A DNA stretch of 64,000 nucleotides from a virus. Its lineage: Duplodnaviria > Heunggongvirae > Uroviricota > Caudoviricetes. Under the pieces are notes generated by a model. That model was not told the DNA's origin. It worked only from the letters and a program-made list of their open reading frames with translations, and ran no database searches. Each line of letters begins with the position of its first letter. Position 1 is the stretch's first letter. Positions 784-42,911 of this stretch are shown piece after piece. The stretch lies in IMG/VR virus record IMGVR_UViG_3300047445_000122; one strand, written 5' to 3'. A program made the position numbers and the translations under genes.

Positions 784-831
784 AAAATATTTCTCGGAAC
801 CACTTTACTTCCTCAAGAAATGGTCTATAAT
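784..831 (+). promoter_or_regulatory. conserved phage promoter (AAATATTT upstream element, CACTTTACTT at about -35, GGTCTATAAT at -10)
   Basis: Motif 29 nt upstream of ATG 860. The same roughly 50-bp architecture recurs at least 9 times in the window. Confidence 0.6.
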
Positions 832-1138: not shown

Positions 1139-1188
1139 AAAAATATTTCTCGAAACAGCTTTACTTTCTCAATATCCAGGCGTATGAT
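1139..1188 (+). promoter_or_regulatory. conserved phage promoter (variant with a TATGAT -10)
   Basis: AAATATTTCTCG...GCTTTACTTT...GCGTATGAT upstream of ATG 1231. Confidence 0.55.
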
Positions 1189-1230
1189 TCTCTTCATTGG
1201 TAGCGAAACTCAACTGAAAGGAACTACACC

Positions 1231-2760: not shown

Positions 2761-3306
2761 TCATTGGTTGAACTCCAACTTGGTTTCATGTTCCAGGCAA
2801 TCATGGATGTTGGTCTCAGTGCACTTGGGCATGAGCTTGCTTTGTTCCAGCCTGAAGAAGCGCTCCAGGCGGCGGTCATAGCGGTAGACCTTCACACCAT
2901 GATCAAGCAGGTACTTGATGCCATCCCGGTCGCGGTAGTCATTCTCATACACGAAGCCAACCACGCCAGACAGTACCATGTCGGTTGCACATGGATAGCA
3001 AGCTGCGTGGGTACAGAACATGACGGAGCCTTCGGAAGACTCTGAGGACTTGCGCAGCTTGTTCAGGGCGTTGATCTCAGCATGGCGAACATCAGAGCGG
3101 GTCTTCAACCCACCATGACCATCGCACTCTTCGCAGACATTCGGTTCGCCGGGGAGGCGTCCATTCCAACCTTGGGCAACCGGAATGTCTCCGGTCTCGC
3201 CCTTGACGAGCAAAGCGCCCACACGCAGACGTTGAGCATGGGAGTTGGCAGCGTAGCAGGCCGCAGCGTTCAGGTGGGCAATTGCGTGGCGGGTCTTGAT
3301 GTTCAT
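2761..3306 (-). CDS. dCMP deaminase (cytidine/deoxycytidylate deaminase zinc-binding family)
   Basis: HAEINAL followed by CTHAACYPCA (HxE ... PCxxC zinc motif). Start reassigned to ATG 3306 (MNIKTRH), which has a perfect AAGGAAA SD; this creates an ATGA overlap with ORF 3303..3608. Confidence 0.8.
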   Translation of the reverse strand: MNIKTRHAIAHLNAAACYAANSHAQRLRVGALLVKGETGDIPVAQGWNGRLPGEPNVCEECDGHGGLKTRSDVRHAEINALNKLRKSSESSEGSVMFCTHAACYPCATDMVLSGVVGFVYENDYRDRDGIKYLLDHGVKVYRYDRRLERFFRLEQSKLMPKCTETNIHDCLEHETKLEFNQ

Positions 3307-3608
3307 GCGTTTCCTTTGTTGTCGTACCAGAAGGCATCGCCCTTCTTCAGTGGGTTGGGCGTGAGGAACCTGTCTTGGTGCCACTTCTGTCCATCATAGG
3401 TCCAGAAGATAGCAATCAGGGTACGGATACCGGGGATGACGATGTTGTATTGACCAGGTTCAGCAGGAGGGTCTTCAGCGCAGTCGCGTGGGCCGTTGCT
3501 TGGTGGGGCGGGTTCTTTCTTGCCAAAGATGGCATCCCAACCCTTTTGGTACATGGGAGTTGATGTGCGGGTGGCGATGCGGTCGCCAGTGATGTCGTTG
3601 TGACTCAT
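3303..3608 (-). CDS. hypothetical protein (101 aa)
   Basis: Complete ORF translationally coupled to the dCMP deaminase gene. A -10-like TATAAT (minus strand, 3641..3646) lies upstream. Confidence 0.45.
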   Translation of the reverse strand: MSHNDITGDRIATRTSTPMYQKGWDAIFGKKEPAPPSNGPRDCAEDPPAEPGQYNIVIPGIRTLIAIFWTYDGQKWHQDRFLTPNPLKKGDAFWYDNKGNA

Positions 3609-3654
3609 GATTCCTTTCGAGAGGGGTTGCTATGGTCAGGATTATACCGTCAAC

Positions 3655-3775
3655 CCATGGCCGTTGACCCCTGGTGTGGGGACTGGAATATTCCAGTTCT
3701 AAGTGGTTGATATTACAAGCTTGAAATCTTGACTTCAGGCGTTTTGCTGTTGTGAATTCGGAGTCGCCCGTACAT
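3655..3775. repeat. intergenic repeat element, copy A (degenerate)
   Basis: Shares TGACCCCTGGTGTG, TAAGTGGTTGAT, TTGACTT and TGCTGTTGTGAATTC with copies B-D. Confidence 0.5.
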
Positions 3776-4248: not shown

Positions 4249-4890
4249 TTACTTGAAGACGATGTTGATGTTGTCCGGCTTACTCAGCTTGTACACGCGA
4301 TCCTTACCGGCCTTTGCTTCAGACAGAAGCTCGCAGCCGTATTGTTTCGGGTAGTAGTACAGGTACGAGGTCACGCCGGTCTCGGACACATCCATCGCCT
4401 TCATCAGCTTCGGCACGGTGGAGCCGTCCTTCAGCATCAGTTGGCTCATGAGCTTGCCGATCTTGCTTGCTTTCTTGATCGTGACCGTGGTGATGCCGTT
4501 TTCGGTCACTGGAGAACCAGCAGTTGGAACACCAGACGCTGCCTGAGCTGCGTCTTGCTTCGCTGCGGGCTTCACAGCCGGTGCCGCGCCGCCTTTAGCT
4601 TGATTCGCCGCCTTCGTTGCCGGAGCCTTAGCGGCTGGGGCAGCACCGACAGCACCCAGGTTCTGGAGGGTCATCGCTGCCATTACGCCGGGGTGGATAC
4701 CTGCGGCGGTCAGCTTCGAGACATCCATGAACGGAATCACCGGTTTCGGCAGCACTTCAACTTCCATCATGATCTGTACGCTCTTTACCGTACCGAACTG
4801 ACCGGTGGAGGCGTCCAGGATGCTTAGGGCTTCAGCGCCTTCAACGGAGCCGGTGGACAGTTTCAGGTTGATGGTTTTGGTGTTCGACAT
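4249..4890 (-). CDS. hypothetical protein with an Ala/Lys-rich low-complexity centre (213 aa)
   Basis: Start reassigned to ATG 4890 (MSNTKT) with GGAG 8 nt upstream. AAKAPATKAANQAKGGAAPAVKPAAK repeat-like segment. Confidence 0.45.
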   Translation of the reverse strand: MSNTKTINLKLSTGSVEGAEALSILDASTGQFGTVKSVQIMMEVEVLPKPVIPFMDVSKLTAAGIHPGVMAAMTLQNLGAVGAAPAAKAPATKAANQAKGGAAPAVKPAAKQDAAQAASGVPTAGSPVTENGITTVTIKKASKIGKLMSQLMLKDGSTVPKLMKAMDVSETGVTSYLYYYPKQYGCELLSEAKAGKDRVYKLSKPDNINIVFK

Positions 4891-5034
4891 TTTGATTCTC
4901 CATTTCAAAGTAAGTTTGTATTTGTTGATGAGACTTGTTTCACTTCAAGGCCACTTGGGTCTTTTCGCTACTCCGGTTTTTCTCAACCGATGAATAGAAT
5001 CATAGTCTTGGTCTTTTGAAAAGTAAAGAGATTT

Positions 5035-5511
5035 TTAGAAAATTTTCTCGACCTCAATATTTTCCCGGCTACGTTGTTGAATGCCGTACAACTCCAAGAC
5101 ACCTTGAGTTCCACCGTATGCCTCGATTTCCCAGGGCAGAGCAATGAATTGCTCAGCATTCTCAGGCGGGCGGTAAAGAGTCCCATCCCAGAGGAAACCC
5201 CACTTAATACCGGCGTCAGTGCGCATCAAGGTATATTGCAAACGACCCTCGGAGAGCTGACGAGCGTGAATCGATTCGTGGGCCAACACCTCACGGATTT
5301 TGTCCAAGCTGTCGTTATCATTGCGGTTGTAGTACACCAGCAAGTTGCCCTTTTCCTCTTGAACGAACGCCTTACACAGCCCGGAGTCATCAAACTGCTG
5401 GAAGCGGATGATGACGTCATTGTATCGGGTTTGTGAGAACGCGAACAGACCGAAGTGTTCAATGTCCTTCACGGCGGATTGCGTCAAACCTACAGATTCT
5501 ACATATAGCAT
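5035..5511 (-). CDS. hypothetical protein with an HExxH motif (possible metallopeptidase)
   Basis: AHESIHARQ motif. A promoter -10 (TATAAT on the minus strand at 5585..5590) and a terminator at 5645..5680 lie upstream. Confidence 0.35.
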   Translation of the reverse strand: MLYVESVGLTQSAVKDIEHFGLFAFSQTRYNDVIIRFQQFDDSGLCKAFVQEEKGNLLVYYNRNDNDSLDKIREVLAHESIHARQLSEGRLQYTLMRTDAGIKWGFLWDGTLYRPPENAEQFIALPWEIEAYGGTQGVLELYGIQQRSRENIEVEKIF

Positions 5512-5644
5512 ACAGCTTAATCCCCTTTCTCCGAGGTACGCGGTTATTCATGTCTTGTTGTGTCTATGCTGCTTGACCGGGGGAATTATAGGCGCGTTAA
5601 TCGTTATTCTCCTAGAGAAATATTTCTATTGAGCGGCTTGACAA

Positions 5645-5699: not shown

Positions 5700-6710
5700 T
5701 CAACCGCGCAGCATCATCGTTTCTGCGGTGTCCAACCACTCATCGCCGTCCGTCTTCATATAGCTCGCCAGCTTCAGCACGGAGCGGATCGACAACTCAC
5801 GCATACGCTCGGCATGAGTAGACAGCCATTCGATCAGCATCTCACCCTCTTCTTCATTCAGGCCTTGCTCCGAGATCAGGTCAGAGGTGGCGATGACTTG
5901 CTTGATGCGGATCAAGATTTCACGGTTGGTGTGAACTTTCAAGTCCAGGTAGTTCGAGCGGGAGATCAGCGCCTTGAAGTGCTCCGACATCGTGCCGCCC
6001 TTCTCGATCACGCGGTCAAAGTCCTTGTTGGTGATGAAGGCGATGGTGCCTTCAAAATCAAACTCTTGAGGGATGCCGTTTTCCTCGAACCAGGAGGAGG
6101 CGGAAGGGTAGGACAGGTTGCGAGAGCCGGTGTCCAGCGCTGCCTTCAGGAAGTTCAGGCAATCCTCGTCAGCGAACACGGAGTCAATATCATCGAACAC
6201 CAGAACTTGACCCGGATTCGAGTGTTGGAACAGTTGGGTGTACAGGCCCAGTGGGGTGATCTTGCCGCGCAGGTGGGTGAACTTCTCAATCTCACGACCG
6301 CGCAGGGCTTTGTGAAGGCGCTTCTCCAGGGTGTAGGTCTTACCCACGCCTGGGGCTGCGGAAATGATCAGGGCTTTCACGGAGCCGGTCACCAGGCCTT
6401 CCACCATACGATCCATCACGCGGAAGCGCTTGGCGATGATCTCACCCAGTTCTTCGTCAGTCAACTCAATCGAAGCAGCGTGAGGCTGGACCATCGGGCT
6501 GTTAGCGCCGGTCATCTCAGCAGGTACGCCGTCAATCGTCATGTCCTTACGCCAAGCCTGAACGCCGATCTTCTTGCCGTCGCGGATGATGTACACGTAC
6601 ACATCGCGCTTGTTCTCCTTGTCGCCGCTGATGATTTCCACCAGAGGGAAGGTGCCGGTCAGTTCACGGCCATAGTAGGTTGCGGAGGTCAGGGTGATGG
6701 TTTTGAACAT
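5700..6710 (-). CDS. AAA+ family ATPase
   Basis: Walker A motif AAPGVGKTYT and Walker B motif VLVFDDIDS. Start reassigned to ATG 6710 (AAGGAAA SD), because the conserved promoter -10 at 6751..6756 lies inside the longer track ORF. Confidence 0.6.
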   Translation of the reverse strand: MFKTITLTSATYYGRELTGTFPLVEIISGDKENKRDVYVYIIRDGKKIGVQAWRKDMTIDGVPAEMTGANSPMVQPHAASIELTDEELGEIIAKRFRVMDRMVEGLVTGSVKALIISAAPGVGKTYTLEKRLHKALRGREIEKFTHLRGKITPLGLYTQLFQHSNPGQVLVFDDIDSVFADEDCLNFLKAALDTGSRNLSYPSASSWFEENGIPQEFDFEGTIAFITNKDFDRVIEKGGTMSEHFKALISRSNYLDLKVHTNREILIRIKQVIATSDLISEQGLNEEEGEMLIEWLSTHAERMRELSIRSVLKLASYMKTDGDEWLDTAETMMLRG

Positions 6711-6750
6711 GATGTAGTTTCCTTCAGTTGATATTGTTTCGATGAGGTCT

Positions 6751-6798
6751 ATTATACGCCAATTATTGAGCAAGTAAAGTGGTTTCGTAAAAATATTT
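6751..6798 (-). promoter_or_regulatory. conserved phage promoter for the AAA+ ATPase gene
   Basis: Minus strand reads AAATATTTT..CCACTTTACTT..GGCGTATAAT. -10 lies 35 nt upstream of ATG 6710. Confidence 0.55.
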
Positions 6799-6838
6799 TC
6801 GACCCACCGAAGCAGCGCCCCGGAGGGCGCTTTTCATC

Positions 6839-7306
6839 TTACATCAACCAGAGGAGAGGTTGAGCCTTGCCCATCAACTTCTCGTTGAAATCCTCATCCC
6901 AAGGGAACTTGCCCTTGTCGTCAGTCAGAACCATTTGAAGGTAGACAGGAGCCGATTCACCCTTGTTGTAGTAGTATTCCAGACCCTGAACAGCCCAGTC
7001 ATCGACTTGCTTGGTGGTCAGCTTCTTGAACACCACCGGGAACCTTCCAACGTTCAGGGAGGAGGAACCGTCAGTGAACTTGCGACCGGACTTGATCTCA
7101 TCCACAGCTTTGTGAATCAGGTAGTGACCGATTTCCTGACGGACACCCATGACGATGATTTCTGGGTGGTCAAGGGTATCTTTCAGACCGACAGTGTAGC
7201 AGAACGGTGGAGTCATGGCGTCAGGATCAGCGAAGACGCCCATCACAGCAAAGCCATAGTCTGGGTTCTTGATGTCACTCTTGATCTTTTGTTGGATGAT
7301 GTCCAT
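6839..7306 (-). CDS. DUF4262-like protein (155 aa)
   Basis: Size and the CYTVGL / HPEIIV pattern are reminiscent of the DUF4262 family. Start reassigned to ATG 7306 (AAAGGA SD). Low certainty. Confidence 0.3.
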   Translation of the reverse strand: MDIIQQKIKSDIKNPDYGFAVMGVFADPDAMTPPFCYTVGLKDTLDHPEIIVMGVRQEIGHYLIHKAVDEIKSGRKFTDGSSSLNVGRFPVVFKKLTTKQVDDWAVQGLEYYYNKGESAPVYLQMVLTDDKGKFPWDEDFNEKLMGKAQPLLWLM

Positions 7307-7375
7307 TCTGTAGTTCCTTTCAGTTTGATCTCGCGGTATTGCTCGACCTGAAAAGATTATACTTGGTAACTTGAT

Positions 7376-7424
7376 AAAAGAAAAGCCCCTGAGACGAATC
7401 TCAGGGGCTTTTTCGTTACTTCGT
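7376..7424. terminator. bidirectional rho-independent terminator
   Basis: AAAAGCCCCTGAGA-cgaa-TCTCAGGGGCTTTTT. Confidence 0.7.
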
Positions 7425-7712
7425 GGCTCTGTTGTACGTATCCCACGATTCCTTGTGGCGTTCATACTCACGCACTACGTCCCGGAACCAGGCGGTCATC
7501 TCATTCACAGGGAAGCGACTGGCTTGACCCTCGTTGTACTGGATCCCCGTTCCCGGCGATTCCCAGACCCGCTTGTGGTACTTGAACTTGAAGCCAAAAA
7601 TCTTGACTTCCTTCTGAACATACAAGCGGACAACAGCCTTGGAGTATTCAGCAACCGTCCAGCGACATTGATAGTCACCCAGACGGCCTTTGATCAACAT
7701 GGAGTTGCGCAT
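7416..7712 (-). CDS. hypothetical protein (98 aa)
   Basis: Complete ORF, coupled to the upstream ACP-fusion gene, followed by the terminator at 7376..7424. Confidence 0.4.
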   Translation of the reverse strand: MRNSMLIKGRLGDYQCRWTVAEYSKAVVRLYVQKEVKIFGFKFKYHKRVWESPGTGIQYNEGQASRFPVNEMTAWFRDVVREYERHKESWDTYNRATK

Positions 7713-9070
7713 TACTTGGTGTTGTACAGTTCGCGGCCATAGGCCTGGCTGACATCACCCAGCACGATGTACTTACAGCAACGGCACTTGTCGAAGTTGT
7801 AGTCAGTCGGTACGGACACGATGTCGCGTGGATCGACCTTGACTTCAACCAGGCGGTCGCCGCCGCTGGAGCTGGAGAAGTGACGGACATAGCCCGGAGC
7901 ACAGATGTGCAGACCGTGGGAGCAAGTCACGTTGTCGCGGTCATCGACCTTGGAACGTGGCATCTCGACAGTCAGGCCTGGGTTGTTCTTCATCGTACCA
8001 GTGTACTTGTCCAGGTAGTTGTTGCGTACAACCTTCAGGGCGATGATGTCGCCGTCGCCGTCGATGCGGAGGCCAGTCTTGGTCACGAAGTTGAACAGGT
8101 TCTTGTTGACGCGGAAGGAATGGGATTCTTCCAGCTTCTCGAAGAAGCGGCTGAACTTCTCCAGACCCTTTTCATCGGAGTCTTCCAGGCAGCGCATCAT
8201 CACGCCAGCCAGTTCGGAGTCGATGCGCTTGCCATCGAACGTCACACCCTGGGCGGTCACGACCATCTTGCCACTGGACCAGCGCGACAGAGCACCAACC
8301 ATGTCGATCAGATCGTACAGCAGTTGCAGGTCTTTCTTGTAAATCTGGTTGTTCTGGACGTTGGCCACAATCGCGCTGATCTTGTCATAGTTCTTGTGGG
8401 TCTTGTCAATCTGCAGTGGAGTGCTGTCGCGCACCACAGTCAGAACTTGAGGCAGGACGATGGCCTGGAACGGCACCAGAACATCAGGCTCGGTGTCATC
8501 CGCAGCCAGGGAGTTGGTAGGCAGTTCATCGACCGCCTTCATGATGAACAGAACAGCATCCTTGACGGTCTTGATCTTCTCAACATCTTCATCTGGAATC
8601 TCGATGTCGAACTCATCTTCCAGAGCCATAGCCAGCTCAACGGTGTCCAGGGAATCAGCGCCCAGGTCATCGATGAAGTGGGATTCTGGGGATACATCAC
8701 CGGCATCAACGCCCAGTTGATCAATGATGACTTCGATGGTCTTGTTCAGGATGGTGGTGTTCAGCTCAGGCTCCGGGGCCGGAACGATCTTGGCTTCAGC
8801 CGGGATCGCCTTGGACTTGCGTGGCTTGGCTTCCTTCTTCGCCTTCGGTTTGCGCACACGCTTCGGCGCGGCTGCTTTCTTGGCCTTCTTGGTGGTCTTG
8901 GCCTCAACCTGTTCTTCGGTTGGCTTCGGTGCGTTCTCTGCTACAGCCCAGCGAGCCAGGGTGGAGCGGGAGATACCAACCTTGTCAGCCGCTTCCGACT
9001 TGCTCAGACCATTGGCCTGGTAGTTCTGGAAGCTGATAACTGCTTGGATTTGTTGACTCGTCAGAATCAT
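7712..9070 (-). CDS. multidomain protein: N-terminal HTH, Lys-rich linker, acyl-carrier-protein (ACP) domain, and a C-terminal 250-aa domain of unknown function
   Basis: Residues about 115..185 ([59 protein letters not shown]) match bacterial AcpP almost motif-for-motif, including the DSL phosphopantetheine-attachment serine. N-terminal [20 protein letters not shown] helix-turn-helix. Strong SD before ATG 9070. Confidence 0.7.
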
Positions 9071-9145
9071 GTAGTTATTCCTTTCAGTGGATAATACAGG
9101 GAATTATAGCGTCAAGTGGGTTCAACCAAGAACCCACTTACTTGA

Positions 9146-12074: not shown

Positions 12075-12353
12075 TTATTGGTTAATGACCAGGATCGCCA
12101 GATTGACGCAGCCCGGATACTTCAACTCAGATTGTTTGGTGGGATGGTAGATCCAATTATCCACCCGCCCTTCAGTTTTCTCTACCTGGGACAGCTCGAA
12201 GGTCACACAAGCCCCGGTAAGCTGCGAGGTGAGGCTAATTTTGGTGTCCTGCGGGTCTTCCTTCGTGAAGTCGGTCATCTCAGACGCCTCAACAACATAA
12301 CGGCCAGTGGTCTTGCTAAAGTGAAACAGTTCGGAGGCAAAGATGAGATTCAT
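12075..12353 (-). CDS. hypothetical protein (92 aa)
   Basis: Complete ORF. Minus-strand -10 TATAAT at 12394..12399 upstream. Confidence 0.4.
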   Translation of the reverse strand: MNLIFASELFHFSKTTGRYVVEASEMTDFTKEDPQDTKISLTSQLTGACVTFELSQVEKTEGRVDNWIYHPTKQSELKYPGCVNLAILVINQ

Positions 12354-12429
12354 GAGACCAGTATTCCCTAAGTGGTGCGGTTACGATAGGGAAATTATAC
12401 CGGCCAGAGGAGGCGTTGAGTTAGCCATT

Positions 12430-12580
12430 GATATTGGGTCGCCACACAGTGGGTCAACCCAATCAATATTCCAACCGTAAGTGCTTGATTCTACAGGTTG
12501 AGAAAATTGACTTTATTGGAATTGCTGTTGTGAATTCCGAGACAAGAAAAAGCCCCTGGTGGGAACCAGGGGCATGTTGT
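12430..12580. repeat. intergenic repeat element, copy B
   Basis: CCGTAAGTGCTTGATTCTACAGG ... TTGACTT ... GGAATT-GCTGTTGTG-AATTCC hairpin ... AAAAAGCCCCTGG..CCAGGGGC terminator ... ATGTTGTTA. Confidence 0.65.
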
Positions 12581-14011: not shown

Positions 14012-14782
14012 TTATGCGACAGAGAGGGCCGGAGCCTTCAGCTTGTTGATGTCCAGGATGCTACCCAGGACAGGGGCGCCAGCAGCGTCATATTGGACTT
14101 GACGGGTCTGCTCGGTCTGGGTGATGTTCTTCTTCACGAAGTCATCATCCACCAGTGCCATACGCAGGTTGGCCAGGGCTGTGGAGTTGGCCTTGTCGAT
14201 AGCATCGAAGGCTGTTTTCTCACGGTAGATCGCCATGAAGTCCTTGCCCTTGTTGAACGACTTGCCCAGTTCAGCATCAGCCACAGCCATCTCATAGATC
14301 GCTTCTGCCTTCTCCACGACGGCCATGAAGTTCTGGGTTTCCGCCTTGGCTTGCTTGAACATGTCGGTACGATACACAAACAACTGTTCATAACCAGCCA
14401 GCTGTTCGTTGATCTCAGCGCTGTCTTCAGGGTAGCGCTTGTTGAAGTTCATGGCCTTGCGCTTGAACTCTGCCAGAGCTGCAGCTTGCTGGTGCAGGAT
14501 ATCGCGCTGCTCAGCCAGATCGTCTGAACGCTCCTTCGCACGTTGGTGAAGGGTCTCGACCGGGGCGCGGCTGATCACAACCTTCATGGCCTGGAACTTC
14601 AGCTGCGCCATCTTCTCGGTGAAGGCTGGCGTCAGTGCCATCACCAGACCGCCAATCACAGCCGCCGCAACCAGACCCACGAGACCGGTGATGGCCAGGA
14701 AGATGATTGGCGCTACGAACAGACCCGCAGCTAGCATCACGCCAACGCCCAGGTACTTCTTGAACTTCTCACGTTTGTCCAC
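14012..14782 (-). CDS. membrane-anchored coiled-coil protein (2 N-terminal TM helices; PspA/TelA-like?)
   Basis: Hydrophobic stretch at residues 10..55, then a long predicted coiled coil. The conserved promoter lies upstream (14822..14873). Confidence 0.45.
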   Translation of the reverse strand: MDKREKFKKYLGVGVMLAAGLFVAPIIFLAITGLVGLVAAAVIGGLVMALTPAFTEKMAQLKFQAMKVVISRAPVETLHQRAKERSDDLAEQRDILHQQAAALAEFKRKAMNFNKRYPEDSAEINEQLAGYEQLFVYRTDMFKQAKAETQNFMAVVEKAEAIYEMAVADAELGKSFNKGKDFMAIYREKTAFDAIDKANSTALANLRMALVDDDFVKKNITQTEQTRQVQYDAAGAPVLGSILDINKLKAPALSVA

Positions 14783-14821: not shown

Positions 14822-14873
14822 ATTATAGACCAGTTGATTTCGCAAAGTAAAGTGATATTGAGAAAATAAAAAT
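14822..14873 (-). promoter_or_regulatory. conserved phage promoter
   Basis: Minus strand reads TTTTTATTTTC..TCACTTTACTTT..CTGGTCTATAAT, 40 nt upstream of ATG 14782. Confidence 0.5.
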
Positions 14874-14899
14874 GCCCCGGATTTCTCCGGGGCTTTTCT
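14870..14899. terminator. rho-independent terminator
   Basis: AAAAATGCCCCGGA-tttc-TCCGGGGCTTTTCTT. Confidence 0.65.
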
Positions 14900-17111: not shown

Positions 17112-17150
17112 GTAACTCCTTGTTGTTGCTAGGCGGTTATTATACCCTGT

Positions 17151-18854: not shown

Positions 18855-19460
18855 TTATTGGATTGTGACGAACGATTGTTCAATGAAGTCATCGTCCTCC
18901 ATGCCCAACTTATCTGCCATGCGACGCAGGAGATTCATGAGGCTGTTGGTATGGACGATTTGTGAGTTGTAAACCTTGAGACCTGCCAGCTGCTCTTGGA
19001 ATTTAGCAACTTGGTTCTTCAGACTCACGACCTCGGAGAGAGCCGAAATTATAGTGGATTTGGTCTCGAAAGTAAAGGAGCTGAGCTTGTTGAACAAGGC
19101 CTGTTCCTCAACTGTGATCGTGCCATAGATGTGGGCTCCCACAAAGCAAACCTCATCATACTCAAACCCCAGTTCCTCCAGCTTGCTGCTGTTCATGCTC
19201 ATCAGCTCGAAAGCCGCGTCCATGGTCAGCGGCCACAGAGTCCGGTCCAGGACGTTCACTTGGGCAACAACGATGTGTGTCCCGATGACGTCTTTCTGGT
19301 CGTTAGGCAAGATTCCGGCGGCTGGTGACCCGAATTGGTTGAGGTGGTGAGAAAGCTCAACGTACAAGCGTTTAGCCACCTCCTCGGTCAAGCACACGAA
19401 GCGCATGCTCAGAGTCTTCGCGGTCGGGTTCTCCTTGAAGTTCTTCACGTCGTCAAGCAC
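18855..19460 (-). CDS. hypothetical protein (201 aa)
   Basis: Complete ORF between the MazG-like gene and uvsX. Confidence 0.4.
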   Translation of the reverse strand: MLDDVKNFKENPTAKTLSMRFVCLTEEVAKRLYVELSHHLNQFGSPAAGILPNDQKDVIGTHIVVAQVNVLDRTLWPLTMDAAFELMSMNSSKLEELGFEYDEVCFVGAHIYGTITVEEQALFNKLSSFTFETKSTIISALSEVVSLKNQVAKFQEQLAGLKVYNSQIVHTNSLMNLLRRMADKLGMEDDDFIEQSFVTIQ

Positions 19461-20647: not shown

Positions 20648-21724
20648 TTACTCCATAATGTTGAATTTGCGGAACGGCGACCAGGTCACGGCGCTCAGGA
20701 GGTCGCCTTGGAGGCGGCGCGTTACGCGGTGTTGGTAGATCACACCCTTCTTCGACAGGATATATCCATACACCAGAGCAGCGTATTCATACATCAGGTC
20801 GCCGTAACCGACAGCATAGCGATCAAAGATGTCTTCGATCTGGTTCCAGTGTTTGCCCCTCTCAGCTTCCAGGATTTCAGTGGTCTGGGTGATCATGGAA
20901 CCGTATTGAGCAATCAGCTCGCTGAAGAAGTGTTCCCACACCAGGTGACCGCCAACTGGACCAACCAGAGCAACATCATTCTCATGGAAGTTCTGTTTCT
21001 CCTCCAGGACAGCATCGAACTGGTCAATGAAGTCGCTGTAGACGTGGGCATTGGTGACGTGCCAGCGGTAGGAACCCAGCTTCACAGTCGGGTGGATCTT
21101 CTTCACCTCATTGTACATCAGCTCGTGGATGAAACTGAACTCGAATGGGTTGATCGAGCCAGTACCAAACAACAGGTCGCCAGAGCGTTGGATACACTTG
21201 GTGTGGAACTCACCATTCTCCACATAGAAGTGGAGCTCACGATTGCATGGGATGTCTTTTGGTACATGACCTTCACCATACACAGCTTCGATGGCTTCCA
21301 GGTTGTCGATGGTTGGGTCAGCAATCGTGACGAAGGAGCGGCGGGTGTTGATACCGTCATTGCGGAATTGATCAACAGCAGTCTGGAACTGGCTGTAACG
21401 ATGGAGGCGAGGGCCGTATGCGCCGTGCCAGGTAACTCCATCATCGCTGTAGTTCTTTGCGCGGGGCAGGAAGAAGTCCAGGTATGGGGTCACTGCGTTG
21501 GCTCCAGCCATGACCCAGAAGGTCTCAGCGATCAGCTGGAAGATGTTGGATTTGCGTCCGTGGAGGTGTAGGTGGCGGGAGCGGGGATTTTTGAACTCCA
21601 GCGTCGTGTCGTACATCGCCAGAGCGTACCCATTGCGGGTGTCTTGTTTGATACCTTCCTTTTGAAGGGCTTGGAAGGCTCGGTGGATTGTGTGTGAGAC
21701 GGTGTTGCCTCGGATAGTTCTCAT
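20648..21724 (-). CDS. ThyA-superfamily enzyme (thymidylate synthase or dUMP/dCMP hydroxymethylase) with about 90-aa C-terminal extension
   Basis: ThyA landmarks in order: RNGYA, ETFWVM, YGP, NTRRSFVT, catalytic PCN, QRSGDLLFG...N, AHVYS. The sequence continues a further 90 aa beyond the canonical fold. Confidence 0.75.
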   Translation of the reverse strand: MRTIRGNTVSHTIHRAFQALQKEGIKQDTRNGYALAMYDTTLEFKNPRSRHLHLHGRKSNIFQLIAETFWVMAGANAVTPYLDFFLPRAKNYSDDGVTWHGAYGPRLHRYSQFQTAVDQFRNDGINTRRSFVTIADPTIDNLEAIEAVYGEGHVPKDIPCNRELHFYVENGEFHTKCIQRSGDLLFGTGSINPFEFSFIHELMYNEVKKIHPTVKLGSYRWHVTNAHVYSDFIDQFDAVLEEKQNFHENDVALVGPVGGHLVWEHFFSELIAQYGSMITQTTEILEAERGKHWNQIEDIFDRYAVGYGDLMYEYAALVYGYILSKKGVIYQHRVTRRLQGDLLSAVTWSPFRKFNIME

Positions 21725-21802
21725 GAAACTCCTTCTTGTTGCTAGAGGTCGTATTATACCTCAGGCTGTTGGTAGTTGGAAACCCAGGGGTCAAGACCAA
21801 GA

Positions 21803-25028: not shown

Positions 25029-25056
25029 AATGTAGGTTCCTTTCACAGATGAGTCT

Positions 25057-25104
25057 ATTATACGGACAACATCTGTGAAAGTAAAGTGGTCTGAAGAAAT
25101 ATTT
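25057..25104 (-). promoter_or_regulatory. conserved phage promoter
   Basis: Minus strand reads AAATATTT..CCACTTTACTTT..GTCCGTATAAT. Lies upstream of ATG 25028. Confidence 0.55.
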
Positions 25105-25123
25105 TATTGACCTGCGCGCTTGA

Positions 25124-25362: not shown

Positions 25363-25773
25363 TCAGAACAGCTTTTCAAAGCCGAAGGATTTGATCATCC
25401 AGAATTCATCACCCATCTGGATGATGTTGCCCACGCTCATGGAGGTGTGGCTGAGACCCTTGCTGATGATCAACTCGCGCGCTTGACCGTCTGGAGACCA
25501 GAAGTCACCCTGGAGAACGCCATAGATGTGTTCCAGATGCTCAAACACGGTCTCGCCTTCGTTGATGGCTGGACCGACAAAGCTGCCCAGCTCCACATAC
25601 TTCTCGGTCAGGGTTTCGCGGGTCGGCAGCAAGCCCTCTTCCTTCATGAAGTTGTAGCCCATCAGGGAGTCGCGCACGAAGGTGGAGTTGGCGTACCAGG
25701 CCTTGTACTTGTCGCCAACAGCGAGGATCGGTTGGTGTTGGGCTGCGTCGTTGAGGGTCTTGAACATTTCCAT
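25363..25773 (-). CDS. hypothetical protein (136 aa)
   Basis: Complete ORF; terminator downstream. Confidence 0.45.
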   Translation of the reverse strand: MEMFKTLNDAAQHQPILAVGDKYKAWYANSTFVRDSLMGYNFMKEEGLLPTRETLTEKYVELGSFVGPAINEGETVFEHLEHIYGVLQGDFWSPDGQARELIISKGLSHTSMSVGNIIQMGDEFWMIKSFGFEKLF

Positions 25774-25841
25774 GATGTAGTTTCCTGTAGTTGAGGTTGA
25801 CCGGATTGATCAACTTGAGAAGGATTATAAACCCATTCCAG

Positions 25842-27278: not shown

Positions 27279-27326
27279 ATTATAGACCACTTTATTGAGA
27301 AAGTAAAGTGGTCTCAGGAAATATTT
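27279..27326 (-). promoter_or_regulatory. conserved phage promoter
   Basis: Minus strand reads AAATATTTCC..CCACTTTACTT..GTGGTCTATAAT, 33 nt upstream of ATG 27246. Confidence 0.6.
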
Positions 27327-28030
27327 TCTGACACGCCTCGTGGACCAAAGTTGTCCAACTTGAAGTCCAACATGTCTGTGATCTTGATAGGACGCACCCC
27401 AGTCAGCTTCAGGTCAGCAGGGATGATATAGGGGCGCTCCTTCAGGATTTTCACTGTAGCGCGTCCATCAACAATTGGACCAACTTCAATAATCGGCGCT
27501 TCCTGGTCAATCTGTCTCTCGACATACTTGGCGTTTTCGATTGGGACGCAATGCTCCATCCCATCCTCGAAGTTGAGAGCCGAAGTGACGTTGACAGACT
27601 TGTAGTTGGCGTGATGGCTATACTCGATCACGCCAACGCACTCAGGGCGCTTGATATCCGCCATCCCCTTGCACCATTCCTCATGACGCTTGAAATGGAT
27701 CTCAATGTCCTTGACGATGTTGCGTACAGTATCGCCGGAAGCCACGAAGTCATCCAGGATCAGGTAGCGGGTCACATCAACGTTCCGCGTGCCTTCAATC
27801 TTCTCTCCGTGGCTCGATTCACCATCCTTGCGAACAACAATCAACGGGAAGTCGATCAACATCAGGGTGGCGAAGGCGAACGACAGACCGCTTTTGCCGG
27901 TCACTGCAATCGCCTGGGCGTCATACTTCTTCAGGAGGAATGGGATGACCTTGGACAGCCTCTGGGCGTGATGACGCAGAGAGACTGGATCGAACTGGAT
28001 GTCTGAGTAACCGCTGGGGCGAAATTCCAT
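27314..28030 (-). CDS. phosphoribosyltransferase (type I PRTase) domain protein with a C-terminal extension
   Basis: Canonical PRPP-binding motif RYLILDDFVASGDTV. Confidence 0.55.
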   Translation of the reverse strand: MEFRPSGYSDIQFDPVSLRHHAQRLSKVIPFLLKKYDAQAIAVTGKSGLSFAFATLMLIDFPLIVVRKDGESSHGEKIEGTRNVDVTRYLILDDFVASGDTVRNIVKDIEIHFKRHEEWCKGMADIKRPECVGVIEYSHHANYKSVNVTSALNFEDGMEHCVPIENAKYVERQIDQEAPIIEVGPIVDGRATVKILKERPYIIPADLKLTGVRPIKITDMLDFKLDNFGPRGVSENIS

Positions 28031-28109: not shown

Positions 28110-28262
28110 TCAACCACGCTCTGACCCCTGGTGTGTCCTGTGGGATTTACCACTCGTAAGTGCTTGATTTTAAAGAGCGTAAAACTTGACTTCTCCCGAA
28201 ATGCTGTTGTGAATTTCGGGCAATAAAAAGCCCCTGGAGGCCGAAGTCCAGGGGCAGATGTT
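28110..28262. repeat. intergenic repeat element, copy C
   Basis: TGACCCCTGGTGTG ... TCGTAAGTGCTTGATT ... GCGTAAAACTTGACTT ... CCCGAAAT-GCTGTTGTG-AATTTCGGG hairpin ... AAAAAGCCCCTGG..CCAGGGGC ... GATGTTGTTA. Confidence 0.65.
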
Positions 28263-28564: not shown

Positions 28565-29611
28565 TTAAATCAGGCTGTGCGTTGTCGCTTTCGGCTGGGG
28601 AGCGCCTGCGCCGTTGTACTTCGAGCGTACTTGACCACCTTCCTTCAGCCGCAGATACTTGTCTGTTTCGCACAACAGGTTACTGCCGATGTTGTGGGCA
28701 TCTTCGAGGTGGAATTGTACAAGGGCTTCAACTTCAGCGCTGTAGCCATGCTGAATAGCAACTTGTGGCAATGCGACCTTCACCGCCTCCGACAGTTGAG
28801 CAAGCTCAAGGTAGTGTTGAGCTACCGGGATGGACTTGGTCAGTGGGCGACCATGAAGGCGATTCAAGAAGCGAACCGGGCCAGGGCCGATTGGCGCCCA
28901 GGTCTTCCAATCCGGGGCATCGCGCATGGTCATGTACTTCAAGTCTGCGATTTGCTGACCTGCCATGAAGTCACCGTTGGACTTGGCCTTGGTGAGGCGG
29001 CTGTGATAGCTCTGAAGGGTCTCCCCGGCTTCTGGCGGGCCAATTTCATAGATCGCCTTGAAGACGACATGAGCCAGGAAGTAGCGCTTGTCCTTGCACT
29101 TCTCGTACAACTCCAGGTCACCATCGACTTCAGCCGGGTTCCCGCAACCACGGATCATGTAGGCACCGGTGAACAGCTTGTCTTCCCTGCCGACAGCGCA
29201 GAAGCGGGTATACAGGTCATCAGCGTCATAGCCGTTCGTCAAGTCAGTCCAACCCAGCTTCAGGACGGTCGGAGACCAGTTGATCCAGCGCGCTACAGCG
29301 ACGTTGAACCACATGTCCTTGGAGTGATGATGTGGAGTGTAGAACTCCTTGAACAAAATCTCAGTCTCCTTGTCGTGCATGCGGTTGACGTTACAAAAAC
29401 GATGGTCGCGGATGAAGGTGTCTTCGGTCCACGGCTTGGGTTGACCTTCAGCTTTCTTGATGCGGACGGTCTCCCGCTCCAGTGCCCACTCACAGGCAGC
29501 GATCACATGGTTATGATAGTTGGCGGCGAACTCACCGTTGGCCTTGATCTGGTCTTCCAGGGTCTGGGACAGTTCAACAGCCTTGTCAAGTTTTTCAATC
29601 AGTGTGTTCAT
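28565..29611 (-). CDS. hypothetical protein (348 aa); candidate DNA-modification enzyme
   Basis: Conserved-looking globular protein with no motif I can name. Coupled by an ATGA overlap to the downstream P-loop kinase gene. Confidence 0.45.
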   Translation of the reverse strand: MNTLIEKLDKAVELSQTLEDQIKANGEFAANYHNHVIAACEWALERETVRIKKAEGQPKPWTEDTFIRDHRFCNVNRMHDKETEILFKEFYTPHHHSKDMWFNVAVARWINWSPTVLKLGWTDLTNGYDADDLYTRFCAVGREDKLFTGAYMIRGCGNPAEVDGDLELYEKCKDKRYFLAHVVFKAIYEIGPPEAGETLQSYHSRLTKAKSNGDFMAGQQIADLKYMTMRDAPDWKTWAPIGPGPVRFLNRLHGRPLTKSIPVAQHYLELAQLSEAVKVALPQVAIQHGYSAEVEALVQFHLEDAHNIGSNLLCETDKYLRLKEGGQVRSKYNGAGAPQPKATTHSLI

Positions 29612-30396
29612 ACAAAGAACCCTCCCAGGGCATTGGATGTTGGTTTCGGCTCCTCCTTCGGAGCAGGAGCATATTGGGCGATCATTTCTGGGGTCGGCGC
29701 CACTTGACCCATATCAGTCCAGCGCTTGAGCTCAGCGTTGCGCTTGTTGATGTCGAACTTGCGAATGAGGCGATAATCCACATCAGACAAACCGTCAGTA
29801 GCAAGCAAATTCAACATCTGTAAGACATCATTCCGGTCGCCATAGTGCGTCCAGATACCATAGTCAACCGCCTTGTTATGGGAGGTCATGACTGGGCGAT
29901 ACTTGGCACAGACCTTGTCAGTATCCAGAGGATCAATGTTGCCCTTCGAGACCCGGCGCTTCAGGATCGAGTTGAACACCACTTCAGGGTCAATATCAAT
30001 GGTGAACCAGAAGTATGGCACGTTGGCTGTCTTGAGGTCATCATAGATCACTTGAGAACCCTTGAAGGTTGTAGACGACAGCACACCCTCTGCCAGAGTG
30101 GTCTTGATCTTGGCCAGGTGCATGATAGCACGCTGTCCGGCCTCAAACGACTTCATGCCTTGGTCAGTCTTCTTGTCGTGGGTGCCCTTTACAGCGTCCA
30201 GACCACCACAGTCAGTCTCATACTTGCCAACGATGTGATGGGTACCACAGTCATAGTAGTGACAGCCGAACTCCGGGAGGTGTTTCAGCTCAGCATTGGG
30301 CGGCAGGAAGTTGCGGATGATGGTGCTCTTGCCAGTACCATTGGTGCCACGGATATTGATGTATCCAGGATCACCCCATTTCCAGTTTGGGTTCAT
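29608..30396 (-). CDS. P-loop kinase-family protein (polynucleotide / nucleotide kinase-like)
   Basis: Walker A GTNGTGKST within the first 30 residues. No HAD phosphatase DxDGT motif. Confidence 0.5.
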   Translation of the reverse strand: MNPNWKWGDPGYINIRGTNGTGKSTIIRNFLPPNAELKHLPEFGCHYYDCGTHHIVGKYETDCGGLDAVKGTHDKKTDQGMKSFEAGQRAIMHLAKIKTTLAEGVLSSTTFKGSQVIYDDLKTANVPYFWFTIDIDPEVVFNSILKRRVSKGNIDPLDTDKVCAKYRPVMTSHNKAVDYGIWTHYGDRNDVLQMLNLLATDGLSDVDYRLIRKFDINKRNAELKRWTDMGQVAPTPEMIAQYAPAPKEEPKPTSNALGGFFV

Positions 30397-30477
30397 GTTG
30401 CTCCTTTCATTGTTTGGGGGATTATACTACCAATCGAGAAAAATAAATAGCCCCCAGATTTCTCTGGAGGCCATTGT

Positions 30478-31469: not shown

Positions 31470-32327
31470 TCATTGCGCCGACTTGAACATGGTAGGCATG
31501 GTACCCAGATACTGGATCTTGGTATCGCGCAGTGCTTCAGCCTGCATGCGAGCAATTTCCATCTGCATGACTTGCGGGTTGTTACGATAGGCTTGACCAC
31601 GCAGTTCGATGGCCTTGGCTTCAGCTTGAGCGACTTCCACTTGGGCTTGAGCGGTCACAACAACCTTCTCTTGCTCGGCCTTGGTGCGGCGCACTTCGTT
31701 CTCCACCTTCATGGCGTCCTGAGTCGCTTGAATCTTGGCATTGATCGAGGCCACAACGTTATCCGGGAAGTGCAGCTTGCCCAGGTAGCTGATGGATTCA
31801 ACCGTGATACCGATGGTGGCGGCGCGTTTGATTACAGCGTCATTGACTTCCTTCAGCAGCTTGGCCTTGCCGTCGCCTTGCAGGGACTCAACATCATACT
31901 TGGTGCCGGCTTCGTTGAACTCGTCACGAACGAACGTGCGCAGGAAACTGTCGCTGATGACGTCGATGGGCTGGCGGTACTTCTGGAACACCTTGATGGC
32001 GTTCGCCTTCTCCACATGGTAGGAGATTTGGATGTCCGTGGACACGCCGATACCACCGGCCACCTGGAACTGGATCGACTGATCCGGCTTCTTGCTCTCT
32101 TCACTGCGGGCTGTCCACATGTCGGCTTGGGTGAAGGTCGGCAGCAGTTCCACGCTGGTGTTCCAGCCAGCCATGTAGCGACCTGGATCCAGAACCTTGG
32201 AGTCAACGCCACGGTCATCACCGAACTTGTTGAACTGGACGCCAACAAAGCCGTTCGGGACGTTGTTACAGGCCGACAGGCCCAGAGCCAGGGCGGCGAT
32301 AGCTACGAAACGCATCAGACGGTTCAT
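31470..32327 (-). CDS. SPFH/band-7 (stomatin/HflC-like) domain lipoprotein
   Basis: SPFH core with a coiled-coil tail (EVRRTKAEQEK...). Start reassigned to ATG 32327, giving the lipobox MNRLMRFVAIAALALGLSAC. The stop of the upstream small membrane ORF overlaps this ATG. Confidence 0.65.
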   Translation of the reverse strand: MNRLMRFVAIAALALGLSACNNVPNGFVGVQFNKFGDDRGVDSKVLDPGRYMAGWNTSVELLPTFTQADMWTARSEESKKPDQSIQFQVAGGIGVSTDIQISYHVEKANAIKVFQKYRQPIDVISDSFLRTFVRDEFNEAGTKYDVESLQGDGKAKLLKEVNDAVIKRAATIGITVESISYLGKLHFPDNVVASINAKIQATQDAMKVENEVRRTKAEQEKVVVTAQAQVEVAQAEAKAIELRGQAYRNNPQVMQMEIARMQAEALRDTKIQYLGTMPTMFKSAQ

Positions 32328-32536
32328 TGACATACCACCTTGTTCTGGTTGTACAGATGGGTCAGGTACTTGATAGTGAAGTACGCCGCCAGGGCGGTTC
32401 CGACCAGAGCCAGGACCAGCAGAATGGAGGATGCGATTTTCAGGATCGCAGGCAGGACGAAGCCGGTGAAGACCAGCCACAGTACGATGACCAGCAGCAG
32501 TCGCACCACCAGGCCAAATTCTTTGGAATTAAACAT
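32324..32536 (-). CDS. small 2-TM membrane protein (NfeD-like partner of the SPFH protein?)
   Basis: Hydrophobic 70-aa ORF, translationally coupled (ATGA) to the SPFH gene. Confidence 0.4.
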   Translation of the reverse strand: MFNSKEFGLVVRLLLVIVLWLVFTGFVLPAILKIASSILLVLALVGTALAAYFTIKYLTHLYNQNKVVCQ

Positions 32537-32617
32537 GTTTCTCCTTGTTTGTTATCGGGGATTCGATAGGGAGAATTATATGGAACCCTCCCATGATCGT
32601 AAATCTTGATTGGTTGA

Positions 32618-33199
32618 TCAAGCCCACCAACGATCAAGCTCAATGTTGGAGTCGTACACTGTGGTCTCCAGCTTGACCTCAAGGACTTCGATCTGTGGGT
32701 TGTTGATCTTCAGCAGCTGCGCATAGGCGTTGCACCAGGTATCCACTCCATGAACCTTCCCATAGCGATACCGGGCGTTCAGGAAGACGGTCTTGTGGCT
32801 GTCAGTGACCTCCATAGGGTTCCTGGACTCCACAAAGTCCTTCAGTGGGTTATCCAAGACAAGATCAACAGGCATCCTGATCTTGATATGGCACTCCCTG
32901 TAGTTGTTGTCCGAAGGAGTCAGGGTTGGAAGGTTTTCATGCTCCAGCTTCTGGCGCGTCACCCTCCTGCGGTTCATGGTCAACGACAACCCAGCCCTGC
33001 GGATTTCAGCCATGATGTCGTTGATGTTATTGTAGCCGCCCTTGCCAAGGACAAAGTGGCGAGTGATCATGACATCAGTTTGCTCGCGCTCCTCGCCCTT
33101 CAAGAGGATGATGGTGGGCTTCCAACCGGGGATATGGTACTGATCCCCGGTGTAGGTGACGTGGGCATGGAAATGCCCCTTCAGCTCGGAGACCTTCAT
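32618..33199 (-). CDS. hypothetical protein (193 aa)
   Basis: Complete ORF coupled to the helicase gene. Confidence 0.45.
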   Translation of the reverse strand: MKVSELKGHFHAHVTYTGDQYHIPGWKPTIILLKGEEREQTDVMITRHFVLGKGGYNNINDIMAEIRRAGLSLTMNRRRVTRQKLEHENLPTLTPSDNNYRECHIKIRMPVDLVLDNPLKDFVESRNPMEVTDSHKTVFLNARYRYGKVHGVDTWCNAYAQLLKINNPQIEVLEVKLETTVYDSNIELDRWWA

Positions 33200-35228: not shown

Positions 35229-35516
35229 TCACTTGATCACAACCAGGATGTCTTCGTTGGACAGGATCAGATATTCCACGCCGTCAACCTTCACACCCTG
35301 ACCGGCGCCACGCTTGTGGACGATCTTGTCGCCCTTGTGGAAGGGTTCTGATTCACGCAGAGCGCCGGTGCTGACGTGGGAGACTTCAACCACAATGCCT
35401 TCAGAGACAGAAGCAGCAGGAGCCGGGGCGACGATGATACCGCCAGCTGAGGTTTCAGGGGCGGATTCACGCGTGATCACGCAGTAGCCTGGAGTTGGCT
35501 TGATTTGTTTGGACAT
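35229..35516 (-). CDS. GroES-like co-chaperonin (Hsp10; T4 gp31 analogue)
   Basis: IVHKRGAGQGVKVDGVEYLILSNEDILVVI matches the GroES C-terminus. Start set to ATG 35516 (MSKQIKPT) with AAGGAAA SD, because the longer track ORF would run into tRNA genes. Confidence 0.7.
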   Translation of the reverse strand: MSKQIKPTPGYCVITRESAPETSAGGIIVAPAPAASVSEGIVVEVSHVSTGALRESEPFHKGDKIVHKRGAGQGVKVDGVEYLILSNEDILVVIK

Positions 35517-38863: not shown

Positions 38864-38920
38864 TTTGTTACTACAGCAGGGTATCAGTTCGCCGGAGCGG
38901 AATTGCTCGACGTGAAGAGA

Positions 38921-38953: not shown

Positions 38954-38972
38954 AACTTACTTGACAACCGAA

Positions 38973-42896: not shown

Positions 42897-42911
42897 TATG
42901 TAGCTCCTTTA

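Follow-up and report, generated by a model that had tools for sequence, protein, structure and literature searches.

Candidate UP-element early promoters of the sigma70 type in an uncultured T4-related phage

The stretch of DNA analysed here, referred to as the window, comprises 64 kb (IMG/VR record IMGVR_UViG_3300047445_000122) and belongs to a 165,148-bp JGI metagenome contig (3300046684, Ga0495669_0000010). The element in question is a promoter-like block at 784-831 on the plus strand (AAAATATTTCTCGGAACCACTTTACTTCCTCAAGAAATGGTCTATAAT), relatives of which recur at other sites. Altogether 84 kb of the contig, i.e., the window and its flanks, were examined. To judge by its genes, the contig is derived from an uncultured, large T4-related myovirus. 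The window encodes rIIA, rIIB, a DnaB-like helicase, a UvsX-like recombinase, RNA ligase, PhoH and dCMP deaminase, as well as the gp6 baseplate wedge, neck proteins, sheath-stabiliser proteins and 20 tRNAs. Genes for replication and nucleotide metabolism, the tRNAs and many small open reading frames (ORFs) occupy the minus strand from approximately 1.6 to 44 kb, and the structural genes follow on the plus strand from 44.5 kb.

The best protein match was Delftia phage PhiW-14 (gp6, 45% identity), with ViI-like phages next, and PhiW-14 homologues were found for 20 of the 84 predicted window proteins. Protein similarity thus places the phage as a distant relative of PhiW-14 and the ViI-like phages, outside Straboviridae. 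Megablast of 20 kb against the phage collection gave no relative at the nucleotide level, and the relatives recovered from viral and metagenome contigs by protein-seeded scans were all at 33-42% identity. Other contigs carrying the same genes were 99.98-100% identical, and all remaining matches had at most 45% amino-acid identity. Since there were no intermediate relatives, phylogenetic footprinting of the promoter blocks was impossible.

Promoter-like blocks of the window

An earlier note on this DNA had described a single, highly conserved promoter architecture reused on both strands, and had proposed a motif search as a check. Run on the window, such a search returned 14 sites with the composite pattern TTTACN-N16-18-TAnnAT, as compared to 0.13 expected from 200 Markov simulations. 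Thirteen of the 14 were intergenic, in a window of which 13% is non-coding (P approximately 4e-11). All 14 were co-oriented with the downstream gene, and the sole two composite sites on the plus strand preceded the sole plus-strand early genes. The single elements were in excess as well: CACTTTACTT with at most one mismatch was found 8 times (2.7 expected), AAATATTT 6 times (0.32 expected) and TATAAT 25 times (6.2 expected). An unbiased repeat search also returned the promoter blocks, the longest repeat being 59 nt with 73% identity between 773-831 and 6751-6809. The repeats are thus real and far beyond chance, but at least three upstream architectures had been merged into one. We treat them as three, A1, A2 and B, because their upstream modules are distinct. 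The sites are listed in Table 1.

Class A1, to which the block at 784-831 belongs, was found at seven sites in the window (801 and 1160 on the plus strand; 5027, 6778, 14851, 25085 and 27307 on the minus strand) and at two more in the adjacent 10 kb past the window start, which were scanned in addition. The layout is an A/T block, 11 nt, cTTTACTT, a spacer of 16-18 nt and TATAAT (5/7 window sites) or TATGAT (2/7), with the alignment consensus gAAAATATTTCTCGAAACCACTTTACTTTCTCAAtAAnnTGGnCTATAAT. Exactly 11 nt followed AAATATTT at four sites and 12 nt at a fifth; 5027 and 14851 had a degenerate block. Conservation extended beyond the hexamers, comprising CCAC 5' of the -35, TCTCAATA and TCTCAATAA in the spacer, and TGGTC, or more generally TGG(T/C)(C/G), 5' of the -10; the base before TTTAC was C in 13 of the 14 composite sites. 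CCAC moved with the -35 and TGGTC with the -10 across the range of spacers, and at 27312-27328 and 5031-5047 the UP block was retained even though it falls within the final codons of the gene upstream. Both features argue for selection on the DNA itself. Genes downstream of A1 sites were mostly small ORFs of unknown function.

The upstream blocks were scored against the published 17-bp UP consensus AAAWWTWTTTTNNNAAA (PMC2412878), in which 14 positions are specified and which is derived from E. coli. The A1 sites of the window matched at 11-14 of the 14 positions, and the two sites outside the window at 14 and 9, as compared to 5-9 at the other TTTAC sites (A2 and core-only). At every A1 site 4-5 nt separated the 17-mer from the -35, so that the sub-sites fall near -52 and -42, in agreement with E. 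coli. Six 17-mers scored 12 or more (0.075 expected), and all six were located at A1 promoters. The -35 element TTTACT matches TTGACA at 4/6 positions and TTTACG at 3/6, with spacers of 16, 17 or 18 nt. In a generic sigma70 scan the TTTACT sites ranked top with 10/12 matching positions, the highest among the matches listed.

The coordinates and sequences of the earlier note agreed with the window, and its full layout was recovered on the minus strand at 6751-6798, 14822-14873, 25057-25104 and 27279-27326. Its count of at least nine full sites was too high, as the A/T block stood at the fixed spacing in just seven window sites. Two of its examples, at 38921 and 61026, had the -35 and -10 without the AAATATTT block; the full sites 1139-1188 (+) and 4999-5047 (-) had been overlooked; and the site at 32575 does not consist of TATAAT alone, as had been stated, since TTTACG is present as a -35 at 17 nt. 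The GTGGTC reported before the -10 was exact at two sites only, with TGGTC present at four window sites. The start codon, placed about 30-40 nt past the -10 in the note, was 28-42 nt away at six of the seven full sites and approximately 109 nt away at one.

Table 1. Promoter-like sites and other features of the window. Elements are given 5' to 3' on the strand indicated; UP match is the number of the 14 specified consensus positions.
Feature	Position (strand)	Elements	UP match	Target or context
A1, P801	784-831 (+)	UP-like 784-800, -35 TTTACT 804-809, 16-nt spacer, -10 TATAAT 826-831	11/14	91-aa ORF 860-1135
A1, P1160	1139-1188 (+)	UP 1139-1155, -35 1160-1165, 17-nt spacer, -10 TATGAT 1183-1188	13/14	ORF 1231-1545
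A1, P5027	4999-5047 (-)	UP-like 5031-5047, -35 5022-5027, 17-nt spacer, -10 TATGAT 4999-5004	11/14	ORF 4249-4890; UP-like block overlaps stop codon of ORF 5035-5511
A1, P6778	6751-6799 (-)	UP 6783-6799, -35 6773-6778, 16-nt spacer, -10 6751-6756	13/14	336-aa P-loop ORF 5700-6710; terminator hairpin 6814-6831 before
A1, P14851	14822-14873 (-)	A/T block 14857-14873, -35 14846-14851, 18-nt spacer, -10 14822-14827	11/14	ORF 14012-14782; A/T block is the T-run of terminator 14874-14893
A1, P25085	25057-25105 (-)	A/T block 25097-25105, -35 25080-25085, 17-nt spacer, -10 25057-25062	11/14	small-ORF run 25028 to 23437
A1, P27307	27279-27328 (-)	UP 27312-27328, -35 27302-27307, 17-nt spacer, -10 27279-27284	11/14	ORFs 27246 to 25872; UP block in last codons of ORF 27314-28030
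A2	38921-38968 (-)	GGTTGTCAAG 38959-38968, 10 nt, -35 TTTACT 38944-38949, 17-nt spacer, -10 38921-38926	8/14	tRNA cluster 38863 to 34893; leader TCTCTTCACGTCGAGCAA
A2	39948-39994 (-)	GGGTTGATAA, 10 nt, -35 TTTACG 39971-39976, 17-nt spacer, -10 39948-39953		ORF 38973-39890
A2	43706-43752 (-)	CTTGTCAAG, 10 nt, -35 TTTACG 43729-43734, 17-nt spacer, -10 43706-43711		followed by approximately 810 nt without ORF
A2	44436-44483 (-)	GGGTTGTCAACC, 9 nt, -35 TTTACT 44460-44465, 18-nt spacer, -10 44436-44441		divergence point from plus-strand structural genes
A2-like	32575-32622 (-)	GCTTGATCAACC, 9 nt, -35 TTTACG 32598-32603, 17-nt spacer, -10 32575-32580		ORFs 32324-32536 and 31470-32327
Core-only	61026-61053 (-)	TTTACT, 16-nt spacer, TATAAT, no UP block		ORF starting near 60991 (-)
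Core-only	19048-19076 (-)	TTTACT, 17 nt, TATAAT		inside ORF 18855-19460, 155 nt upstream of UvsX-like gene
B	3641-3653 (-)	TTGACGG-TATAAT, no -35		before ORF 3303-3608 and dCMP deaminase gene
B	5585-5590 (-)	AAATATTT block 5618-5625 upstream, no TTTAC		before ORF 5035-5511
B	7356-7361 (-)			right after terminator 7381-7412; before ORF 6839-7306
B	9103-9115 (-)	TTGACGC-TATAAT, CTTGATCAAG at about -50		before rIIB
B	12394-12399 (-)	GGCCGG-TATAAT		before ORF 12075-12353 and rIIA
B	17139-17144 (-)	ACAGGG-TATAAT		before DnaB-like helicase gene
B	21753-21758 (-)	CTGAGG-TATAAT		before dUMP-hydroxymethylase-like gene 20648-21724
B	25824-25829 (-)			right after terminator; before ORF 25363-25773
B	30421-30426 (-)			before 5-hmdU DNA kinase-like 29608-30396 and aG/PT-pyrophosphorylase-like 28565-29611
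B	36640-36645 (-)			22 nt upstream of tRNA-Arg 36542-36618
B (TATAAT only)	48068-48073 (+)			after hairpin; before structural genes 48091-48423 and 48437-50545
Translation-initiation regions (examples)	1209-1230 (+), 6711-6735 (-), 7307-7330 (-), 9071-9092 (-), 25029-25050 (-)	ACTGAAAGGAACTACA		before early genes
Non-coding repeats of approximately 100 nt	3665-3758, 12442-12558, 28121-28237, 60115-60231 (read on minus strand)			each begins right after terminator
5-hmdU DNA kinase-like	29608-30396 (-)			PhiW-14 gp37, 52% identity
aG/PT-pyrophosphorylase-like	28565-29611 (-)			PhiW-14 gp72, 54% identity
dUMP hydroxymethylase-like	20648-21724 (-)			PhiW-14 homologue, 50% identity

Class A1 and known early promoters

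When the 68-nt A1 consensus was compared by blastn to 50,697 phage records, the best matches were unannotated intergenic sites in two groups, T4-like coliphages (84% identity over 38 nt, covering the UP and -35 half) and the Ackermannviridae phage phiMAM1. The site of Mosigvirus G53, AAAAAATATTTTCATAAAACAGTTTACATCCTCAATAAATGTGTTAAGAT, is preceded by a terminator and followed by small ORFs. Six collinear sites, e.g., AAAAATATTTATTGAAAAAGTTTTACTTCTTCAATAAATGGCGTATAGT, were found in 50 kb of phiMAM1, three of them with UP 13/14 at a gap of 4. Sites of both phages align column for column with those of the window. The example AAAAATATTTATTGAAAAAGTTTTACTTCTTCAATAAATGGCGTATAGT agrees with 6751-6799 in its UP block, gap, CTTTACT, spacer and the GGCG that precedes the -10, while the -10 is less canonical in phiMAM1 (TATAGT, TATTAT or TATATT). 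The ViI-like phages phiMAM1 and LIMEstone1 infect Enterobacterales. T4-like early promoters were reported earlier in LIMEstone1 (PMC3296691), while a search based on TTGACA failed to find such promoters in the CBA120 paper (PMC3184105).

The early consensus of T4 fitted the window sites. It has GTTTAC at -36 to -31 as the -35 element as well as UP elements, is GT-rich 5' of -12 and is conserved at extra positions, and unmodified host RNA polymerase uses these promoters immediately on infection (PMC1524935, PMC2988021). In common with them the A1 sites have an A/T-rich UP element at -40 to -60, a TTTAC-type -35, a TATAAT-like -10, the GT-rich stretch 5' of the -10 and the spacer motif CTCAATAAA. 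The spacer TCTCAATAA with TGG(T/C)(C/G) before the -10 is collinear with CCTCAATAAATGTG in G53. The location of the window sites before small ORFs and tRNA genes would fit early promoters. With the UP-element promoters of E. coli (rrnB P1 type) the likeness lies in a block that matches AAAWWTWTTTTNNNAAA at 11-14/14 and ends 4-5 nt before the -35 (PMC2412878, PMC2613000), the difference being that the window elements are phage-encoded and that binding of the alpha C-terminal domain is presumed here.

Other comparisons did not fit. PhiW-14 was discarded as a comparator for A1, as the architecture is absent there apart from one TTTACG-18-TATAAT in 150 kb. A scan of viral contigs with the pattern AAATATTT-N10-12-CACTTTACTT was likewise discarded; it gave 18 matches, single chance ones, nearly all in AT-rich genomes and with no -10 in register. 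Middle promoters of T4 carry a MotA box, (a/t)(a/t)(a/t)TGCTTtA, centred at -30 and 11-13 nt from the -10, and depend on sigma appropriation by MotA and AsiA. No TGCTTnA-N11-13-TAnnnT was found in the window.

Judged from sequence, spacing, position and orientation, from the statistics and from the collinear similarity to T4-like and ViI-like sites, the A1 blocks are very probably strong T4-like early promoters for host RNA polymerase with its primary, sigma70-type sigma factor, and no phage factor should be required. This agrees with the promoter identity put forward in the earlier note and with its suggestion of an early promoter class driven by UP elements, the upstream flank matching the UP consensus in constant register. 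From canonical RNA polymerase-promoter contacts we infer that the full UP element, which is close to consensus (AAAATATTT-CTC-GAAA, about -56 to -40), would be contacted in its minor groove by two alpha C-terminal domains. At -35, cTTTACTT would be bound by sigma region 4, and sigma region 2 would bind and melt TATAAT or TATGAT 16-18 bp downstream of it. Transcription would start approximately 7 nt past the -10, giving a leader of 20-35 nt with the ribosome-binding site ACTGAAAGGAACTACA, and would do so early in infection. The A1 sites stand before cassettes of small genes of unknown function, some right after terminators, and this is the layout expected of immediate-early units for host takeover. 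The translation-initiation region ACTGAAAGGAACTACA-N2-3-ATG was observed, strongly conserved, before many early genes, and phiMAM1 has a similar counterpart, GAAGGAACTTTACAATG.

Several points weigh against this interpretation. Activity and early timing of the A1 sites are predictions, and E. coli-like preferences of sigma and alpha were assumed. An extended -10 of the TGn type is usual in T4 early promoters, and no TGnTATAAT was found anywhere in the window, where TGGTC, TGGCG or the like precedes the -10 and TG is located at -17/-16. TTTAC is preceded by C in place of the G of T4. As PhiW-14, the closest relative at the protein level, has practically none of these sites, A1 is not a conserved trait of the lineage. 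Finally, the A1 elements are T-rich, and the phage probably hypermodifies thymidine, as discussed below.

A further role, compatible with promoter function, is that the blocks are mobile promoter or terminator-promoter cassettes which serve as recombination points for early genes, like the promoter-early stem-loops (PeSLs) described in T4-type phages (PMC2839356, PMC4122927). We regard this as possible but rather unlikely, and as partly supported. As in PeSLs, early-promoter blocks recur on the borders of ORFan cassettes, and some of the blocks are joined to a terminator hairpin (PMC4122927), the flanked genes being mostly such, as the low number of PhiW-14 homologues indicates. One unit of 99 nt is duplicated: the site at 1160 and a copy 10 kb outside the window are approximately 80% identical from the UP element through the 5' untranslated region and ribosome-binding site to ATGACC, with unrelated genes behind. 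A terminator hairpin directly precedes two of the seven A1 sites in the window (6778 and 14851) and one of the two outside. Most window copies differ from PeSLs in having no stem-loop, which holds for six of all nine A1 sites. With other copies of the phage 100% identical and the rest at most 45% identical in amino acids, no repeat-bounded indel or replacement was demonstrable.

A dependence of A1 on a phage activator binding the conserved flanks, or on a modified polymerase (Alt-like ADP-ribosylation of alpha), appears improbable to us. The earlier note had favoured a dedicated factor on the grounds that TTTACT is poor for sigma70. This argument found no support, given the 4/6 match to TTGACA, the top rank in the sigma70 scan and the precedents of TTTACA as the lac -35 (PMC2613000) and of the T4 early -35. 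Conservation beyond the hexamers (CCAC, TCTCAATA, TGGTC) would suit such a factor, and it, or an Alt-like enzyme that stimulates the promoters by modifying the polymerase, could be encoded in the part of the 165-kb genome outside the 84 kb examined. In T4, moreover, Alt-modified polymerase stimulates some early promoters approximately 2-fold, an effect which has been linked to the T at -33 (PMC2988021, PMC1524935). Against it, each conserved block corresponds to an element read by unmodified RNA polymerase, i.e., the UP element in register, the -35 and the -10. The spacer CTCAATAAA and the GT-rich stretch are also present in T4-type early promoters, which work with unmodified polymerase (PMC2988021). 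The proteins of the 84 kb gave no match to a sigma, MotA, AsiA or ADP-ribosyltransferase family, and the window has no MotA box.

Less credible still is that the blocks are operators, at which a dimeric repressor or regulator would switch early transcription by binding the palindromes AAATATTT and GACCACTTTA...TAAAGTGGTC. AAATATTT reads identically on both strands, the flanks of the -35 and -10 at 27279-27311 make up an inverted repeat of 10 bp without mismatch (GACCACTTTA/TAAAGTGGTC), and ACCAC and TGGTC co-occur at three of the nine A1 sites. At most sites, on the other hand, the inverted repeat is imperfect or absent, and the UP consensus AAAWWTWTTTT is nearly palindromic by itself, so that this palindrome comes free. 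The spacer also varies (16 nt at 801, 17 at 27307 and 18 at 14851). An operator with a dyad at fixed distance was ruled out on this basis, because the arms are tied to the -35 and -10 and shift with them, and their mutual distance is not fixed as a dimer site would require. Functionless similarity by chance or composition is practically negligible and was ruled out by the enrichment statistics, since nothing beyond the shortness of the single elements speaks for it, whereas the enrichments over shuffles ranged from 4-fold to more than 100-fold, placement was intergenic and strand-concordant, and the blocks were recovered by the unbiased repeat finder.

Classes A2 and B and neighbouring elements

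In class A2 the core TTTAC(T/G)-N17-18-TATAAT is kept, and the A/T block is replaced by (G)GTTG(T/A)(C/T)AA(G), i.e., GGTTGTCAAG, 9-10 nt upstream of the -35. This element together with the core was found four times (0.03 expected), at 38967, 39993, 43752 and 44482, with a variant at 32603. All these sites lie within 32-45 kb, and the -10 is TATAAT at every one. A divergent promoter reading from the TTGACA opposite the A2 element was considered and rejected, since inspection by eye gave no -10 at a suitable spacing. An identical initial transcribed sequence of 18 nt, TCTCTTCACGTCGAGCAA, follows the TATAAT of two A2 promoters (38903-38926 and 43688-43711, minus strand), and a related but less close sequence, CTTTTCAGGTCGAGCAA, follows a class B TATAAT at 7337-7361 (-). 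A sequence of the TCTCTTCACGTCGAGCAA type might act as a downstream promoter element, or be a 5' leader that is conserved. As to the core-only sites, the one at 19048 may be either an internal promoter or a chance match.

Class B comprises approximately 11 TATAAT sites without a -35, with a flank that is G-rich or TTGAC(G/A)(G/C). Similar sites were found in PhiW-14 (NC_013697), the first 150 kb of which contain 59 TATAAT (2.7 expected), 47 of these with G two bases upstream of the hexamer. Their flank is tTTtcaGGc-TATAAT (RGnTATAAT), there is no -35, and they usually lie right after a terminator. This consensus is not annotated in the record, and the 2018 genome paper does not mention promoters. 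A G-rich 5' flank, a missing -35 and frequent location right after a terminator are shared with class B, while the flank itself differs, being tTTCAGGc in PhiW-14 versus TTGACGG or GG in the window. A core with a second upstream module at about -50 (A2), together with the -10-only class B, suggests a modular and probably temporally staged set of promoters.

Late promoters of T4, read with gp55, consist of TATAAATA at -13 to -6 without a -35. The motif was not found in the window, where there is one TATAAAT at 53902. ATACACTATAA was observed at 44512-44520 (+) and 53898-53906 (+), in the first case 10 nt before the gp6 baseplate gene and in the second 29 nt before a gene for a 1720-aa structural protein, and is a candidate for a late promoter of the gp55 type, unlike TATAAATA of T4. 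CTAAATAC was also seen at 53892 (+) and 771 (-).

Four non-coding repeats of approximately 100 nt were observed with 61-72% identity, three of them upstream of class B promoter-like sites. Their core is AATTCACAACAGCA...AAGTCAA..TTT....CTGTAgAATCAAsCACTTAC...CACCAGGGGTCA. Two hairpins were recognized by eye, the first with the stems GGAATT/AATTCC, CCCGAAAT/ATTTCGGG or CTGGATTT/AAATCCAG around the loop CACAACAGC, and the second with CTGG/CCAG, GTGG/CCAC or CCAT/ATGG. In both of them the stems vary between copies and pairing is preserved. RNAalifold did not recover these hairpins for the repeat family, as the stems are shifted by one column from copy to copy. The repeats are possibly a small RNA or a protein-binding region.

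A sub-threshold Rfam match to YrlA (Y RNA-like, with a tRNA-like domain) was obtained at 43123-43221 (-), with 41.6 bits against a gathering threshold of 69 and, in a search of 1.7 kb, E = 2e-7. The match is situated within the ORF-free region 42897-43765, in the non-coding stretch downstream of the A2 promoter at 43706-43752. A repeat resembling a tRNA T-arm is located at 43180-43210, and ARAGORN called no tRNA at the match. Two further observations concern coding sequences. A gene of the GroES/Cpn10 family (Pfam PF00166) is situated within the tRNA region at 35229-35516 (-), and the rIIB homologue at 7712-9070 (-) has an acyl-carrier-protein (PP-binding) domain inserted at approximately residues 108-182.

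Thymidine hypermodification and meaning of the promoter set

Three window genes are homologues of hypermodification genes of PhiW-14 (Table 1; matches based on PMC5889632). The phage therefore probably hypermodifies thymidine, and its T-rich promoters are probably read on hypermodified DNA. The three upstream architectures might then constitute a temporal programme adapted to hypermodified-thymine DNA, an idea which we consider speculative and of low probability. Injected DNA would have its major groove decorated at many T positions. As alpha reads the UP element in the minor groove, the modification would go unnoticed there, and unmodified host polymerase could fire at once. A2, with GGTTGTCAAG at about -50, and B, with its G-rich or TTGACGG flank and TATAAT, would depend on a phage factor. 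To our knowledge, ViI-like and PhiW-14-like phages are without MotA and AsiA, and a missing middle mode has been noted for them; the temporal programme, if true, would fill this gap.

The T4-type early promoter is a known class. What appears to be new is its occurrence in a distant phage lineage and the clean split into three upstream architectures. No new mechanism is revealed by the A1 sites, and the only possible new leads are A2, B and the T-rich promoters on hypermodified DNA. The A1 design suggests that the host polymerase is enterobacteria-like. The comparison also shows that ViI-like and PhiW-14-like phages have the T4-type early design, i.e., UP element, TTTAC, conserved spacer and TATAAT, in almost base-for-base agreement. 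The sites make up, for an uncultured phage, a solid set of candidate early promoters, which may be used for annotation of operons and timing and as strong promoter parts.

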